Shown here in pieces: positions 38,215-45,561 of a stretch of DNA of 64,000 nt. The notes under the pieces are model-generated. The model saw only the letters and a program-made list of their open reading frames with translations, did no database searches and was not told the DNA's origin. This stretch comes from a virus. The stretch's first letter is position 1, and the number at the start of each line of letters is the position of its first letter. The DNA lies in IMG/VR virus record IMGVR_UViG_2822706143_000001. One strand, given 5' to 3'. The position numbers were made by a program, and so were the translations under genes.

Positions 38215-38757
38215 TTAGATTTTAAACCTAGTCATTGCTTTATCCATTTCATCTTGATTTACACCTATATAACGTAATGTGACCTTCTCTGACGAGTGAT
38301 TGAATATCTCCATGAGTAATGCTATGTTTTTCGTTTGCATGTACATATGATACCCGTACGTCTTTCTTAGCGTATGTGTTCCTATTTCATCTAATCCGAA
38401 CTCTGCTGCGGCTATACTTAATATCTTATATGCCATGCTGCGACCGATAGGACGATTCTTCCCTTGTCTACTTTGTAATAAATACTCATTATCTTCTCTT
38501 TCTTCAATGAACCATTTAAGTTCTCTTTTTAATGCTGCAGTAATTTGAATACGTTTTTGTTTTCCTGTTTTCTTTTCCCTCATAGAGATATGGCTGCCTT
38601 TGACATCACCTACTTTTAATTTCAAAATATCTGATATTCTAAGACCTGTATTAATACCCATAATGAAGAGAATGTAATTACGTAAGCTCTTTTCCTTAAA
38701 ATACTCTTTTAGCTGCTGTATTTCTTCTGGATCACGTATTGGCTGAACAAAATTCAT
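38215..38757 (-). CDS. Small tyrosine recombinase (catalytic domain only, 180 aa)
   Basis: GLRISD (R), KTGK (K), THTLRKT (HxxR), NHSS (H), LRYIG (Y). Confidence 0.92.
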   Translation of the reverse strand: MNFVQPIRDPEEIQQLKEYFKEKSLRNYILFIMGINTGLRISDILKLKVGDVKGSHISMREKKTGKQKRIQITAALKRELKWFIEEREDNEYLLQSRQGKNRPIGRSMAYKILSIAAAEFGLDEIGTHTLRKTYGYHMYMQTKNIALLMEIFNHSSEKVTLRYIGVNQDEMDKAMTRFKI

Positions 38758-39239
38758 TATTCATTACCTCCAGTCTCTTCTGTCTCGTAAACTTCTAATC
38801 CAAGTGCAAAAGCAAGCTTATAAAAAGCTTTAGACTTCCAACGTCGATAAGTACGCTCTGACATTCCGATTTCGTTATAGACCATGTAATCACATACATC
38901 CTCTTCTTCTAAATAACGTTTATAAATAATATCCCTTTGAATACTTCCAGCACGTCCGTTTCCTAATCGAGTTAGAAACTGATCAATACGTACTGACATT
39001 CTCTCAAGCCACTCTTCTCGTTTACTTTGTTGAATATTCGCTATAGCAACATCTTCTAACGGTTTTCCGACTGCATGTGTAGGACCATGCTCACGTATTT
39101 CATAAGAAGGAGTGACCTTCATTTCTTTACGCATCATCCCGAATTGTCTATGTATACGTATACTTTCCAACACGCCTTCTAATTCCTCTTGGGTTGCCGT
39201 TCTATCGATTTTTGGTAAGAAAGATAATTGTTTAGTCAT
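38757..39239 (-). CDS. ArpU-family late (packaging/lysis) transcriptional activator
   Basis: IIYKRYLEE..CDYMVYNEIGMSERTYRRWKSKAFYKLAFAL. Confidence 0.9.
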   Translation of the reverse strand: MTKQLSFLPKIDRTATQEELEGVLESIRIHRQFGMMRKEMKVTPSYEIREHGPTHAVGKPLEDVAIANIQQSKREEWLERMSVRIDQFLTRLGNGRAGSIQRDIIYKRYLEEEDVCDYMVYNEIGMSERTYRRWKSKAFYKLAFALGLEVYETEETGGNE

Positions 39240-39785: not shown

Positions 39786-40390
39786 TAGACTGTCACTCCT
39801 ACTACAGCATTTTCATATGTTATTGTGTAGCCGCATCTTTTCGGTTGTAAGCTCATTCATTTTATTTCTTAAAAACCTTCATGAAGTATCCTGCACTACA
39901 CACTCCGAGGAAAAGCGCTGTTCGAAGGCGCTCTTTTTTATCCTAATAATATTCACGATTTTGTACATACTACTCATAAGCTGCTTTCTTAACAGTGTTT
40001 GCAGCCCGGAACCTTTTTTAGGAAAAGGGGCAGTTAGCTTTTGCTAGCTGCTCCTTTTGATTTGCATCCCAACCATGAATGCAGTAGTTATATAAACTTC
40101 CATCAATATGCTCTGTACGTCCGTTGTATGTAACTTTTGTCCCACAAACTTCATTAACTTCTCGGACACTGCTTCTTGCTGTAAAAACATCATCTTAGTT
40201 TGCGAGGTAAATATAGAAGTGCCCTAATCCTGTATTACGGACCATCGCTTTTCCTTTGCAATCTTTCTTCAATTTACTTCTTAATGTTTCAATGTACATC
40301 TATTTCACCACTTTTCTACAAAATGAAATTTTTATATACATAAATACCTGACTAAATACCTAAAATAATTAAAAATTTAGGTGGTATTCA

Positions 40391-40486
40391 ATGAAAACAG
40401 CACTCACGATCCTTAAATATTTATTAATTACACTAGGAATTACTTGCTTAATTATTTTAGGTTACATATGGTATTTTCCACATTAA
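40391..40486 (+). CDS. 31-aa single-TM peptide
   Basis: MKTALTILKYLLITLGITCLIILGYIWYFPH; AGGTGG RBS. Confidence 0.7.
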   Translation: MKTALTILKYLLITLGITCLIILGYIWYFPH

Positions 40487-41372
40487 TTCAAATAGCGTTT
40501 TGTTCAAATTAACGACCATAAAGTCGAACATATTTACCAGTATTTTTACCAATAAATTCATGATTACCTTAAATTTTTTTCGCCTTTTAATTGGACAGGC
40601 ATATGATGTTTTATGGAGGCATCCACTTATAGCAATCTACCTTTCTTGTCAAAGGGCATACTTATATGTGTGCTCTTTTTGTTTGTTATGAAGAAACGCT
40701 TTTGTTCACATTTCTGATACATTTATGAAACTTCATGTGTTATCTTTAATAAGTTCTTTAACTACAGAAAGATTTATTATGTAAAAAGTCCTAATCCCCT
40801 CTAGGGCTTTTTACATTGAAATAACGATTTTATAATTCATCAACATCTTCATGCCCGCGTAATACATCTGTAAACATTACTGAATTTCTTGCTTTTCTCA
40901 TTTCCCATGTGACACAACCTTTTATTGAGCGCTAGGATCAATCCTAGCCTTTTTTACGCAAGATAAAGATTTTATTTAAACTCGCACCTACACCAAAAAC
41001 ATACATACAATATTATGGGTATTCTTTTTCAATATTAGTTTTGGTCAGAGCGTCTTTCTCTCAAGGCGCTCTTTATTCTTTAATGACAGGCTCCATAACT
41101 CCAAGTAAGGCATACAATATTCAAAATTCACTCGTAAAAATCTGATTACGATTTTCTGAATTTTTTATATTTCATGAGACATTCACATACCTTACTAAGG
41201 GTGCATATAAAAATGCGCTCTTTTTGGTATGGAATGTGAAATAAAGGCTTGCTCTTAAAACCTTTTATATAATTATTGTGGGGCGGGTTCCTTACACCAG
41301 TGTGTCTGTTTACTCATAAGTTGTTAAAGTATAAATATAAATTGTTAGTTAATTTATAAGGGAGGTGTAAAA

Positions 41373-42671
41373 ATGAGTAAATTTAAAAAGAATTGTCACA
41401 TACCCTTTCCATGTGCCTTTCCTTTACCTCAAATCGGGTCTACTGGATTAACTGGTGCTACTGGACCTTCGGGACCTACTGGAGCTACCGGACCTTCAGG
41501 TGGACCTCGGGGACCTACCGGGCCTACTGGAATTCAAGGTAGCCTGGGACCTACTGGGCCTCAAGGTATTTCTGGACCTCAAGGGATTCCTGGGATTTCT
41601 GGATCTATTGGTCCAACTGGACCTTCTGGAATCCAAGGTATCCAAGGTATCCAAGGCATTCCTGGCATTCAAGGTCCTATTGGACCCACTGGAATAACAG
41701 GGGTCACTGGAATTCAAGGGATTCCTGGCATTCAAGGGATTCAAGGGATTCAAGGGATTCCTGGTCCGACCGGCCCTCAAGGGATTCCTGGCATTCCTGG
41801 TTCTGTAGGTCCAACTGGACCTTCTGGAGCTGTTGGACCTACCGGCCCTTCCGGGGGACCGCCAGGACCAACGGGCCCGACTGGACCTTCTGGGGGACCA
41901 CCAGGACCAACCGGAGTGACTGGCCCCACTGGACCTTCTGGGTCACCAGGACCAACCGGACTTCAAGGTATTCAAGGTATCCAAGGCATTCCTGGCCCCA
42001 CTGGACCTCAAGGAAGTCAAGGGATTCAGGGGATTCAAGGTAATCCGGGGCCTATTGGTCCTACTGGAATAACTGGGGCGACTGGAATTCAGGGTATCCA
42101 AGGTATTCAAGGTAATCCGGGACTTATTGGACCTATCGGCCCGACTGGCCCAACTGGGCTTCAAGGTATCCAAGGCATCCAAGGCATTCCTGGGCCTACT
42201 GGATTACCAGGAACCGCTGGAGCTACCGGATCTACTGGACCTACCGGACTTACAGTATCTGGGTTATCTCATTATGCTTATGTTTTCAATACAGCAGCTC
42301 AAGTTGTTGCCTTAGAAGCACCTATTCTTTTTAATTCACATGGTAGAATGACATCTGGTTTTACTCATACACTGGGAACTTCTCAATTAATGGTTCTTAA
42401 TGCAGGAGATTATAAAATTTCTTTTTCTGTATCAGGAGTTGAGCCTAATCAATTCACACTTTTTTTAAATGGTGCTCCGGTTACCAGCGCAGTTTATGGA
42501 TCAGGTGCAGGAACTCAACCAAACAACGGCCAAACAATCCTCGCTTTAGCTGCAGGTGATATTATTACCCTTAATAATCATACTTCCGCTGCTGCAGTTA
42601 CTTTGCAAACTTTAGCAGGTGGAACACAAACAAATATAAATGCTTCGATTGTAATTGAAAAGTTAAATTAA
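41373..42671 (+). CDS. BclA-like collagen protein with C1q/TNF-like C-terminal domain
   Basis: About 90 Gly-X-Y triplets (GPT, GIQ, GIP); C-terminal YAYVFN...[20 protein letters not shown]...NASIVIEKL. Confidence 0.9.
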
Positions 42672-43219
42672 TTATTTCTTGAAGCTCTGGCATTCAATAA
42701 TCTAGAGGGGATTCTTTTTTCAACAAGTAGTTAGCATTAGCGATTCATTGTCACATTACGATGAAATGGTCATATATTATTTCGAAGCAAGAAACCCTAA
42801 TCTACTTTTCAACATTTCACTTTTTCCCTAAAGAGCACCGTAAGTAAGTGCTCTTTTCTCATGGAATAAAAACTTGTCGCATTTATACCTGACAAGTATA
42901 CGTTATTGTATGGAGACTCTCCACTCATGGAAATCTACCTTTCTTGTCTCTGAGCACGCTTATATGTGTGCTCTTTTTCGCTTGTTATGAAATAAAGATT
43001 TTGTTTAGAATTTGCACATACGTTAAAAATACACATAGGATATATTGTTACCACTTTTCGATATGAGCCTTGGTCAAAGAGTGCTTTCCCGGGCGCTCTT
43101 TTTATGTTTAAATAAAGATTTTGTTTTACTTTTGCTAGCTACCCTTCCCTTGTATAAATGCACCTTTTTTTACATACCATATTAAAATCCAAATAATTCT
43201 CTTTTAGGACGGTACTAAT

Positions 43220-43312
43220 TTGAACAAGACATTAAAATACATTTTAATCTTCTTTTGTGCGATGTATTATATTGTAATTATTGGCTGTATTGTCTATCTA
43301 AACTTTGTTTAA
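43220..43312 (+). CDS. 30-aa single-TM peptide (possibly nonsense-truncated)
   Basis: TTG start with AGGACGGT RBS; MNKTLKYILIFFCAMYYIVIIGCIVYLNFV. Confidence 0.55.
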   Translation: MNKTLKYILIFFCAMYYIVIIGCIVYLNFV

Positions 43313-43555
43313 GAGCATTTTATTCCTCCAAGCAAGAAATCAATCTAAGAACGAACATAAGCATTTATAATTAGGCATAAGGAGCGCTCCACAAGGCGTT
43401 CTTTAGCTTTAAAATAAGAATTTTATAAAAAAATGCTCACTTTCAATTCCTCTATTTCCGTCATTTTGATTCTACCTTCCCCCTTATAACAAGATGAGCT
43501 CCTTTGTTAACCCTATAAAAAACAACCTAAATATGGTAAAATTTAAATAAGGTAG

Positions 43556-43867
43556 GTGAATATAATGAGTGGATTTGTAGTTTGCACACTTGTTAGTCTA
43601 ATCGTTGTAATAATGGGTTATCTGATTCATATTAAAAAACAATTATTTCTTATTGCTGGATACCAAGATGCTAATTTTATTGGTGATAAAAATAAACTAG
43701 CTAAATTACTCGGCATATTTGCTTACATAGTAGGAATTGCTACTTTTTTACTACCTTTCGGACTTGAATTTTTCGGCGGCATAAGTGGCAAAATCTATGC
43801 AAACTGTGTTGTTGCAGGCACAGTTTTTGTTTTGGTTAGAGAACAAATGATTAATAAACCTTTTTAA
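43556..43867 (+). CDS. DUF3784-like membrane protein
   Basis: KKQLFLIAGY motif, three TM helices, own terminator at 43868-43893. Confidence 0.75.
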   Translation: MNIMSGFVVCTLVSLIVVIMGYLIHIKKQLFLIAGYQDANFIGDKNKLAKLLGIFAYIVGIATFLLPFGLEFFGGISGKIYANCVVAGTVFVLVREQMINKPF

Positions 43868-43924
43868 AAAGAGTCTTAATACGGCTCTTTTTTATTGATA
43901 AAACTAATTCAAATAACTATTTTG

Positions 43925-44527
43925 TTATAAAGTAACTGCTTCTGCTGCCGGTTTGCTTTTCTCTAATTGTTCAATTGCCATTTGCAATCCTAACCAGTAA
44001 CCAATTAAACGACGTGGCAACCTTTTACCGAAATTCCAAATGTCTTCCAACGTGTCAGAATCTAAGGAGCTGCTATGATAAACGTCACTTAACCAAAAAT
44101 GGTAACCTTCCATAGATGAACTCTCATCAATTGCTGAAATAATACGATCATATACTTCCTGTCCGTCTTCTCTTGTTTCGTTTATATCGTAGTCCTTCCA
44201 ATATTCATCAAGTTCCCTTTTTGCCTTTTCTTCATCAAAATTCCAACGTTCTTCACAAAAAGCCGTTAACTTTTCAGTAAAATACCCTAAATTGAATCCT
44301 TTAATATTTTCTAATGTTGCTGGACATGTAAGGTTATACACCGCTTCGCCAATATCCCCTGAAATAAATACGTTATATCCTGCAAGAACAAATTTAGTAC
44401 GATACATATTTGTTCCAGGCTTGCCCCAATAAACAACCTGTAACCCTTCTTCACCTTGAATTTCAGCTACATGATCTACAAACCAATTCTCTCTAATATC
44501 TTTAGTTGCTTTTTCAACGTATTCCAT
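43925..44527 (-). CDS. Phage early hypothetical protein
   Basis: RBS GAGGGGG; bounded on both sides by the 15-bp motif. Confidence 0.75.
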   Translation of the reverse strand: MEYVEKATKDIRENWFVDHVAEIQGEEGLQVVYWGKPGTNMYRTKFVLAGYNVFISGDIGEAVYNLTCPATLENIKGFNLGYFTEKLTAFCEERWNFDEEKAKRELDEYWKDYDINETREDGQEVYDRIISAIDESSSMEGYHFWLSDVYHSSSLDSDTLEDIWNFGKRLPRRLIGYWLGLQMAIEQLEKSKPAAEAVTL

Positions 44528-44724
44528 TTTTCATTTCCCCCTCTTTGTATTCAAATAACGCTTTTGTAATAAATTCTCTTAATAAAATCCTCTTGTTACA
44601 ATTATCCCTTCAATTAAAATTACTTCCTATGAGCCGTGCCCCCTTAATAAAAACAAGCATCTAATAAGGTGAAGTATTTTTATATTTCGATAAGTATTAT
44701 TTAACAAATGAAAGGATGTTGTAT

Positions 44725-45057
44725 ATGTGTTGTTGTACAGACCCTCAGTTTGTCTCTATTTCTACATGCAATTCTTTCACGACAACAGGAGGTGATGTAG
44801 TTGGTGGAGCTACAGTATTTAACAATACTGGAGGTCCAGTTCTTTCCGGCTATGTCACTCTTACTAATAACCCTGCAAGTGGTGCAATTACTGCCTTTTT
44901 AGCGAACAATGGTACAAATATTATTGGCCCAATAACTCCAGGTAATAGCCAAACTGTTTTTGTGTCAAACATAGGAACATTGGTTGCTTTTTCTGGCACC
45001 GCTGGTCAACCTGTTAGTGGTAGAGTTTGTGTTGAAGCTGCACGTCAAGTAGCATAG
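44725..45057 (+). CDS. Ena-like endospore appendage subunit (DUF3992-type)
   Basis: MCCC N-terminal connector; SGYV, PGNSQTV and GRVC motifs typical of the Ena jelly-roll; AAAGGA RBS before ATG 44725. Confidence 0.65.
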   Translation: MCCCTDPQFVSISTCNSFTTTGGDVVGGATVFNNTGGPVLSGYVTLTNNPASGAITAFLANNGTNIIGPITPGNSQTVFVSNIGTLVAFSGTAGQPVSGRVCVEAARQVA

Positions 45058-45150
45058 ATTGTCAGAAAAAGATATTAATTCATTTTGGATTTAATATCTT
45101 TTTCTTAATTTATATACAACGCTTATACTATTGAAATGAGGCATTATATT

Positions 45151-45561
45151 ATGAAAAAAAATTCTTTGGATTTTAAATATCTATTTCCAATACCCTGTGC
45201 TTTTCCAATACCAACCTGTGATTCATTACCAATACCAAAAGAAAAACAAAAACTTGTATGTAATGAAATTTGTGGTAACTTTCTACTTAATGACAACCCT
45301 ACCTTTCTAGAAGTTTGGGAAAAGAGAATAGAACAACCTATTACTGCTACTGTCACAGTCTTTAACAGTTTACAAGGTTCACTAATTGAAGTTAGCGTAC
45401 AACAAAGCATGAGTAAGTCCATCCTTTTCATAGTCCCTCCTGGAAATTCAATTTCCAAAACAATTGAAGATACACAATCAGTTACTATTCGTCTCTTAGA
45501 ACCTGGCAGTGCAAGCGGAAAATTCTGTTTAGATATACATTTCGCTATAAAGTCCCTATAA
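45151..45561 (+). CDS. Ena1C-like endospore appendage protein (DUF3992-type)
   Basis: LVCNEICG, VW, TVTVFN, PGNSIS, QSVT and GKFC align with my recollection of Ena1C; GAGG RBS. Confidence 0.75.
   Translation: MKKNSLDFKYLFPIPCAFPIPTCDSLPIPKEKQKLVCNEICGNFLLNDNPTFLEVWEKRIEQPITATVTVFNSLQGSLIEVSVQQSMSKSILFIVPPGNSISKTIEDTQSVTIRLLEPGSASGKFCLDIHFAIKSL

Follow-up and report, generated by a model that had tools for sequence, protein, structure and literature searches.

A stack of candidate sporulation small RNA genes in a Bacillus cereus-group prophage

Why would a temperate phage carry, facing against its own operons, a row of short promoter-terminator units that appear to encode no protein? The question is raised by IMG/VR virus record IMGVR_UViG_2822706143_000001 (the window, that is, the whole stretch of 64,000 nucleotides analysed here), a Bacillus cereus-group prophage with nearly all of its genes on the minus strand. 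A 4.6-kb island lies between the minus-strand early genes, which end at 43925, and the genes for an ArpU-like regulator and a small integrase-family protein; everything in it is oriented oppositely to the phage operons, and mini transcription units, all on the plus strand, occupy 39.8-43.1 kb. A preliminary description, made from the letters alone, saw in some of these units phage small RNAs of the sporulating mother cell, antisense to the phage's own early operon. The analysis reported here suggests a partly different answer: the stretch probably consists of small non-coding RNA genes, stacked but independent, from several B. cereus-group families, with predicted mother-cell sporulation promoters that most likely belong to the sigma-K class.

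Anatomy of the units

The units follow one general plan: an AC-N16/17-CATA-N3-TA promoter; 55-115 nucleotides (nt) without a conserved open reading frame (ORF); and an intrinsic terminator. By sequence, at least five families (A to E) can be told apart. The exact pattern AC-N16-CATA-N3-TA occurs nine times in the whole window, against 3.1 ± 1.9 expected, and no shuffle gave nine; three of the nine (40986, 42753, and 43016) cluster within 2.1 kb on the plus strand, exactly where the preliminary description had placed them. Terminator-like sites between 39.5 and 44.5 kb likewise number nine (3.5 ± 1.9 expected), eight of them on the plus strand. A script pairing the promoter pattern with a terminator returned four island units, at 39795 (N17), 40986, 42753, and 43016. 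Spacing and boxes are of exact sigma-K type in units B1, D, and B2 (N16) and in unit C (N17).

Family A is present twice. Unit A1 (40575..40685, plus strand) comprises a degenerate promoter (GC at 40582-3, CATAtgaTG at 40600), a predicted RNA of about 70 nt (approximately 40611-40680), and a terminator at 40651-40678. Unit A2 (42872..42983, plus strand) comprises a second degenerate promoter (GC at 42879-80, TATAcgtTA at 42897), an RNA of about 70 nt (42908-42978), and a terminator at 42952-42973. These promoter variants, too, are as first described. Under R1, a home-made covariance model of family A, the two score 109.9 and 115.3 bits, respectively, and the fold of A2 has a z-score of -4.2. 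The repeat that they share (40622-80 versus 42920-78) is 85% identical across 59 nt and, as noticed earlier, lies in different frames of the local ORFs in the two copies.

Family B also is represented by two units on the plus strand. B1 (40961..41083) contains a boundary motif, a TCGCAC-N16-CATAcaaTA promoter (40986-41012), an RNA of about 60 nt that carries a conserved UUUUCAAUAU..UUGGUCA box, and a terminator (41047-41072); B2 (42990..43109) contains the boundary motif AAATAAAGATTTTGTTT (42990), a TTGCAC-N16-CATAggaTA promoter (43016-43042), an RNA of about 60 nt, and a terminator (43076-43101). The corresponding model, R2, gives them 112 and 119 bits, and the repeat glimpsed earlier around 41015 and 43045 extends over 40961-41083 versus 42990-43109. 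Unit D (42745..42858, plus strand) has a GTCAC-N16-CATAtatTA promoter (42753-42779), an RNA of about 75 nt with AAUCUACUUUUC, and a terminator (42830-42858); four further distinct homologues share its invariant promoter. After each of these five promoters, the G+C hairpin and T-run reported in the preliminary description are indeed found.

In the RNA of unit A1, a CU-rich linker (AAUCUACCUUUCUUGUC), unpaired, connects a 5' hairpin with the terminator. For the family as a whole, 41 distinct copies collected from 71 species genomes of the genus were aligned. The RNAalifold consensus structure contains the terminator only, as eight pairs that are 99% paired with G-C/A-U/G-U exchanges. The 5' hairpin can be drawn in two alternative registers, in which 77% and 91% of cells pair and which both show a few double changes; neither register is decisive. 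Between hairpin and terminator lies a pyrimidine-rich linker of about 20 nt, AAAUCUACCUUUCUUGUC, which is unpaired in the 41-copy consensus structure and in the A1 minimum-energy fold and partly paired in single-sequence folds of A2 and of one relative (L016).

In family A there is no conserved ORF and no pair of ribosome-binding site (RBS) and start codon, and indels of 1 nt and 5 nt shift the frames. Local ORFs over the A repeat run in different frames from copy to copy. More generally, no conserved ORF was found inside an A, B, C, or D unit of any relative found, so that the relatives give no sign of the eroded protein-coding cassettes against which the preliminary description had cautioned. 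With their own predicted promoter and intrinsic terminator and no conserved ORF, the units have the make-up by which a putative trans-acting, base-pairing small RNA is recognized.

The census is larger than at first described: families A, B, and D had been noticed, and units C, F, G, and E, all on the plus strand, had been missed. Unit C (39795..39938) has an AC-N17-CATAtgtTA promoter (39795-39822), a predicted non-coding transcript of about 115 nt, and a terminator (39908-39938). Homologues with 78% identity occur in phages BtCS33, phIS3501, phiCM3, and phi4I1, with an invariant promoter and a compensatory change in the terminator stem. A "hypothetical protein" annotated on the opposite strand over this unit in phIS3501 was rejected: in the window, indels disrupt its frame, which also runs across a terminator hairpin. 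Unit F (40686..40830) is a conserved segment with a bidirectional terminator (40779-40816) and a CATGtgtTA-like -10; unit G (40817..40955), with a terminator at 40931-40948 and without a clear promoter, is conserved in close relatives only. Unit E (41085..41230, about 145 nt) follows B1-type units and has a CATAcaaTA -10-like box and a terminator (41197-41222). Its 3' part resembles unit A (CAUGAGACAUUCAC.UACCUUAC), with a weak R1 match of 22 bits, and it has six distinct homologues, phage Waukesha92 among them.

The boundary motif AAATAAAGATTTTGTTT is quasi-palindromic and stands after terminators and before the next promoter, at 40961, 42990, and 43110 and, in weaker form, at 43911. It could serve as an UP-like element or as a joint at which recombination shuffles cassettes.

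A core chromosomal orthologue of family A

In the counts that follow, related genomes are not independent of one another, and the E-values of R1 and R2 are rough. Model R1 detects about 180 copies of family A across 51 of the 71 species genomes, against a single marginal match in six sister genera (34 genomes). Of the 41 aligned copies, 34 have the exact AC-N16-CATA-N3-TA, and the consensus promoter, CAC-N16... GCATAT.TTA, is a perfect sigma-K-type sequence. The most invariant columns are the -35 CAC and the -10/+1 block (GCATAT.TTATTGTATGG); the RNA body is conserved too. Conservation runs from the -35 box to the T-run, and the alignment collapses upstream of -40 and past the T-run. For comparison with MITE-like (miniature inverted-repeat transposable element) bcr repeats, the two ends of a unit, TTTCAC... 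and ...GCTCTTTTT, were examined; they do not form inverted repeats, and promoter and T-run mark the exact limits of conservation.

Family B (R2) has about 135 copies in 45 of the 71 genomes, mostly clustered in arrays, with no syntenic core copy evident among them. Families C, D, and E form smaller phage and prophage sets with invariant promoters and with compensatory changes in the terminators; units F and G are terminator-bounded and partially conserved. BLAST against phage and plasmid collections located the same units in sequenced phage genomes, including Negev_SA, AP631, Waukesha92, SpaA1/BceA1, phiS58, phBC6A51, BtCS33, phIS3501, and others, where they sit in gaps that are almost always unannotated; the cassettes are shuffled between phages. 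Indeed, the units are unannotated in essentially all deposited phage and bacterial genomes examined. The Rfam search and covariance model that had been called for gave, besides the R1 distribution, no Rfam family: the whole window is without a match at gathering score, and 39.4-43.95 kb, searched at E up to 5, gave only miRNA or plastid models at chance level. Literature searches by topic, by literal sequence words, and by locus tags around BA_2335 returned, within the library searched, no description of these RNAs.

One A subfamily stands beside HxlR-type regulator genes (L023, L026, L029, L030, L035, and L038) and has lost the T-run after the hairpin (GCTCTTAAAT or GCTCTTAGA). Such copies may read through into downstream DNA.

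The preliminary description spoke of phage small RNAs; in the wider comparison, the units are not a speciality of phages. In about 28 species, a 108-nt family-A copy occupies a syntenic chromosomal site, immediately downstream of a 64-amino-acid gene of the BA_2335-like Pfam family, with C1q/BclA_C-type genes nearby. Its context is non-phage, with no opposing gene beneath, and further copies lie in a chromosomal exosporium island. By sequence comparison, family A is thus not phage-specific: the prophage type is a putative paralogue of a host-core gene.

The core orthologue has a textbook conservation profile, expressed as mean pairwise identity among 23 aligned loci, one per species. Its RNA body is 97% identical: the linker, or seed, reaches 97.6% (20 of its 22 columns are invariant), the 5' hairpin 96.8%, and the terminator stems 95-100%. 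In the promoter, the -10 is 96% and the -35 90.5% identical. By contrast, the promoter spacer is 77% identical and the terminator loop 75%, and identity falls to 55% further upstream and to 13% downstream of the T-run. A body that stays invariant while spacer, terminator loop, and flanks vary is the signature of an RNA gene. The conserved, predicted-unpaired linker likewise looks as expected of a seed under purifying selection. The phage copies share with the core host gene the 5' hairpin, a CACUCAUA box, and the CU-rich linker; phage seed CUACCUUUCUU and host seed CUAUCUUUCUU differ at two positions.

About 50 nt upstream of the core -35 (L071:2620-2680, minus strand, and orthologues L073 and L075-L095) are 90% conserved across the 23 species. 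In this block ATTGAT(A/T) occurs three times at intervals of about 11 nt, and some regulator may bind to these repeats.

The reading of the units as RNA genes thus builds on what is observed: the anatomy and family membership of the units, how they are conserved and distributed, and the genes with which they are associated in genomes. The earlier claim that they are independent non-coding genes gains from the comparison (boundaries from -35 to T-run, covarying terminator stems, and ORF-destroying indels), all of it evidence at the level of sequence.

Promoter class, partners and rival explanations

The proposal of sigma-K-type promoters fits the sequences: 34 of the 41 family-A copies have the exact consensus, and the units lie among spore-surface genes. 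In the window itself, A1 and A2 have degenerate -35 boxes. In the family-A consensus, TGGACAAGC abuts the -10 and matches the SpoIIID consensus TAGGACAAGC (quoted in PMC11180830) at 9 of 10 positions. GGACAAG is present in 23 of the 41 copies; the box position reads TGGACAGGC in A1 and CTGACAAGT in A2, and the core orthologue is without the box. This pattern suggests that many family-A relatives may be modulated by SpoIIID.

The spore-surface association recurs elsewhere. In six species, exsF/bxpB-like genes are flanked on both sides by co-oriented A units, and several BclA-like collagen genes as well as C1q-like and DUF4183 genes run in the same direction as A and B units beside them in the loci that were fetched; Ena-like genes are further co-oriented neighbours. 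These associations occur in prophages and in a chromosomal island with the order B, A, exsF, A, x, B, x, B, bclA-like; its elements share one strand, and phage genes are absent around it. A prophage in one genome (G013) reproduces the layout of the window: integrase-like, ArpU, and GerPF-like (by eye) genes, A-like units, a DUF4183 gene, and a collagen-like gene. The chromosomal exosporium island at L118 (G051:C1:2338500-2346500) holds genes of three kinds on one strand: one exsF-like, one for a BclA-like collagen protein that seems to be frameshifted, and one for a 287-amino-acid Cys-rich repeat protein. At least six A/B-type units are interleaved with them, and phage genes are absent nearby.

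How might such genes act? Transcription, sigma-K dependence, base-pairing mode, and targets we infer as follows. Sigma-K RNA polymerase would read the mother-cell promoter of each unit, giving a transcript of 55-115 nt that ends at the intrinsic terminator. Late in sporulation, the prophage copies would be transcribed in the mother cell alongside the spore-surface cargo, collagen-like and Ena-like. The RNAs could then pair in trans through the invariant linker; that this linker is both invariant and unpaired is what suggests base pairing. Phage RNAs would supplement the host RNA or compete with it, and translation or stability of late sporulation mRNAs would be tuned. More speculative, and in our judgment rather doubtful, is a broader idea: that temperate B. 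cereus-group phages bear small RNA cassettes which can be exchanged, paralogues of a host-core, sigma-K-timed RNA among them, and with these would reprogram late mother-cell expression, for example in exosporium or appendage assembly.

The search for partners yields leads only. The complement of the A linker resembles an RBS followed by ATGAGTGG. A pattern search for it in five host genomes returned the RNA gene itself and the fliM start only; the fliM match is probably chance, since about 0.1 is expected per genome and orthologous matches are not independent. In duplex scans of 505 gene starts, the start of the island's DUF3784 gene ranks among the top few true gene starts with both seeds (z about -3). 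Both matches are weak leads rather than findings. The DUF3784 start (43540-43575, AAGGTAG..N9..ATGAGTGGA) is complementary to the family-A boxes CUACCUU and UCCACUCAU, and the homologous gene in another locus (L110) retains the second box.

Several points weigh against the reading of the units as sigma-K-dependent small RNA genes. Neither the duplex scans nor the pattern search gave a convincing target. Promoters, transcript ends, and timing of the units are predictions, and units E, F, and G are without a clean sigma-K match. In A1 and A2 alike, G stands in place of the A of the -35 AC, and A2 in addition reads TATA instead of CATA, whereas the provirus copy closest to A1 (L007) retains the canonical CAC; the window's A copies thus are slightly degenerate members of the family, perhaps weak or in decay. 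Being rich in A+T, the -10 regions might also be used in part by sigma-A; unit D, for example, matches a sigma-70-type site at 9 of 12 positions. Finally, strong conservation of a DNA segment could reflect a role at the DNA level.

The last points lead into two rival explanations. Units of this form could be transcriptional punctuation or empty moron cassettes (promoter-terminator shells left after loss of cargo, or insulators) whose RNA has no function. Units do lie between cargo genes and end at the shared boundary motif (40961, 42990, and 43110); the shuffling of cassettes between phages and the degenerate -35 boxes point the same way, and the downstream A-like unit of the exsF island may merely provide the exsF terminator. 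A shell, however, predicts the reverse of the core profile, in which the body is most conserved (97-98%) while spacer, terminator loop, and flanks drift, and no relative has a conserved ORF in an A, B, C, or D unit. We consider shells unlikely. Real small RNA genes might, on the other hand, be read by sigma-A, sigma-E, or a phage regulator (ArpU-like) and be expressed vegetatively or upon induction. The A+T-rich -10 regions overlap TATAAT-like hexamers, with unit D as an example; the -10 box of B and E, CATACAAT, also fits the sigma-E consensus; and the units adjoin the ArpU-like late-regulator operon. Yet invariance rests with the C and A of CATA and, in the -35 box, with AC rather than TTG, at a spacing of 16-17 nt, with the full sigma-K pattern in 34 of 41 copies; the association with exosporium genes and the non-phage context of the core copy argue likewise. 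A different polymerase specificity therefore seems improbable.

Orientation raises another possibility, close to the antisense role first proposed. Because every unit faces against the main phage transcription, the units might work as cis brakes, antisense or by convergent transcription, on minus-strand transcripts running from the early operon toward the arpU and late operon, and so keep the lytic programme off in the sporangium. Most unit terminators are one-directional, which would permit minus-strand read-through, and the terminator-like hairpin at 43866-43893, between the last early gene and the island, is roughly symmetric and weak on the minus strand (-6.5 kcal/mol). Against such a brake, no minus-strand ORF lies beneath the units, and units also occur on the chromosome in non-phage settings, co-oriented with their neighbours, with nothing opposing the core orthologue. 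For these reasons a cis brake is quite improbable. Antisense control of the early operon is unsupported, with no minus-strand ORF under any unit and with that hairpin separating the last early gene from the island. Least credible of all are micro-peptide genes or leaders (attenuators) of downstream genes. A GGAG does stand near the predicted 5' end, followed 11 nt on by an eight-codon ORF in A2, but its ATG is ATA in nearly all relatives and the 1-nt and 5-nt indels shift every frame; as for leaders, the downstream neighbour varies from copy to copy, and an alternative antiterminator fold was not found.

To our knowledge, little is known about how exosporium assembly is controlled post-transcriptionally in the anthrax/cereus/thuringiensis group. 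On the broader, rather doubtful idea given above, the phages would possess, beside their protein cargo, a toolkit of developmental regulatory RNAs that imitates a regulator of the host. The near-invariant 66-nt core gene, genus-wide and with a sigma-K-type promoter, is a concrete, testable candidate, and the presence of its phage paralogues in a stack next to spore-surface cargo suggests that prophages use RNA as well as protein to tune the properties of the spore.

Surroundings and known systems

The protein genes of the island are few: two for hydrophobic peptides of about 30 amino acids, one for a BclA-type collagen-like protein, and one for a DUF3784 membrane protein. The rest of the island contains no credible ORF. 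The collagen-like gene (41373-42671, plus strand), with 94-96% identical copies in other B. cereus-group records, has its own AC-N17-CATAagtTG promoter-like site about 60 nt upstream. Just past the island, on the plus strand, are two Ena-type endospore-appendage genes (44716-45057 and 45136-45561; Pfam Enas, E = 1e-6 and 3e-18, respectively). Together with the collagen-like gene, they give the plus-strand cargo of the prophage a spore-surface theme. On the other side, both on the minus strand, are the genes for the ArpU-like regulator (38757-39239) and the small integrase-family protein (38215-38757; Pfam Phage_integrase). Adjacent short ORFs of 34 and 49 amino acids at 40044-40299 (minus strand) look like a frameshifted phage-gene remnant.

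The hydrophobic peptide genes lie at 40358-40486 (31 amino acids, good RBS) and 43220-43312 (30 amino acids, TTG start); neither peptide has a PHROG match. In the first, a perfect 15-nt inverted repeat links the 5' untranslated region (40358-40372) with coding sequence (40448-40462), resembling an arrangement in type I toxin mRNAs. Such a peptide gene is paired with a unit A also in Negev_SA and several prophages. Since unit A, just downstream, is on the same strand without overlap and has weak complementarity (unranked in the duplex scans), a type I toxin-antitoxin pair was rejected.

Among known systems, the closest in kind are RNAs under sporulation control in Bacillus subtilis, SurC under sigma-K and CsfG under sigma-F/G (PMC9147052). 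These share with the present units a small non-coding transcript, a promoter for an alternative sporulation sigma factor, and an intrinsic terminator, and their function is largely unknown. They have no similarity of sequence or structure to the present units (Rfam, E up to 5), which are restricted to the B. cereus group, multi-copy, arranged as several families in arrays, and common to chromosome and temperate phages.

The LhrC family of Listeria and RsaE/RoxS are multi-copy, pyrimidine-rich, base-pairing small RNAs of Firmicutes. Like family A they are short, have several paralogues, and display an unpaired C/U-rich stretch before the terminator hairpin that could pair with a purine-rich RBS; the present units differ in their seed, CUACCUUUCUU rather than CCC/UCCC, and in their sporulation-specific promoter class.

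Phage morons, finally, offer the nearest parallel in genome organization: autonomous promoter and terminator, orientation against the phage operons, position between functional modules, and shuffling among phages. Here, however, the cargo is a predicted non-coding RNA of 55-115 nt instead of a protein gene, and up to ten units are stacked.

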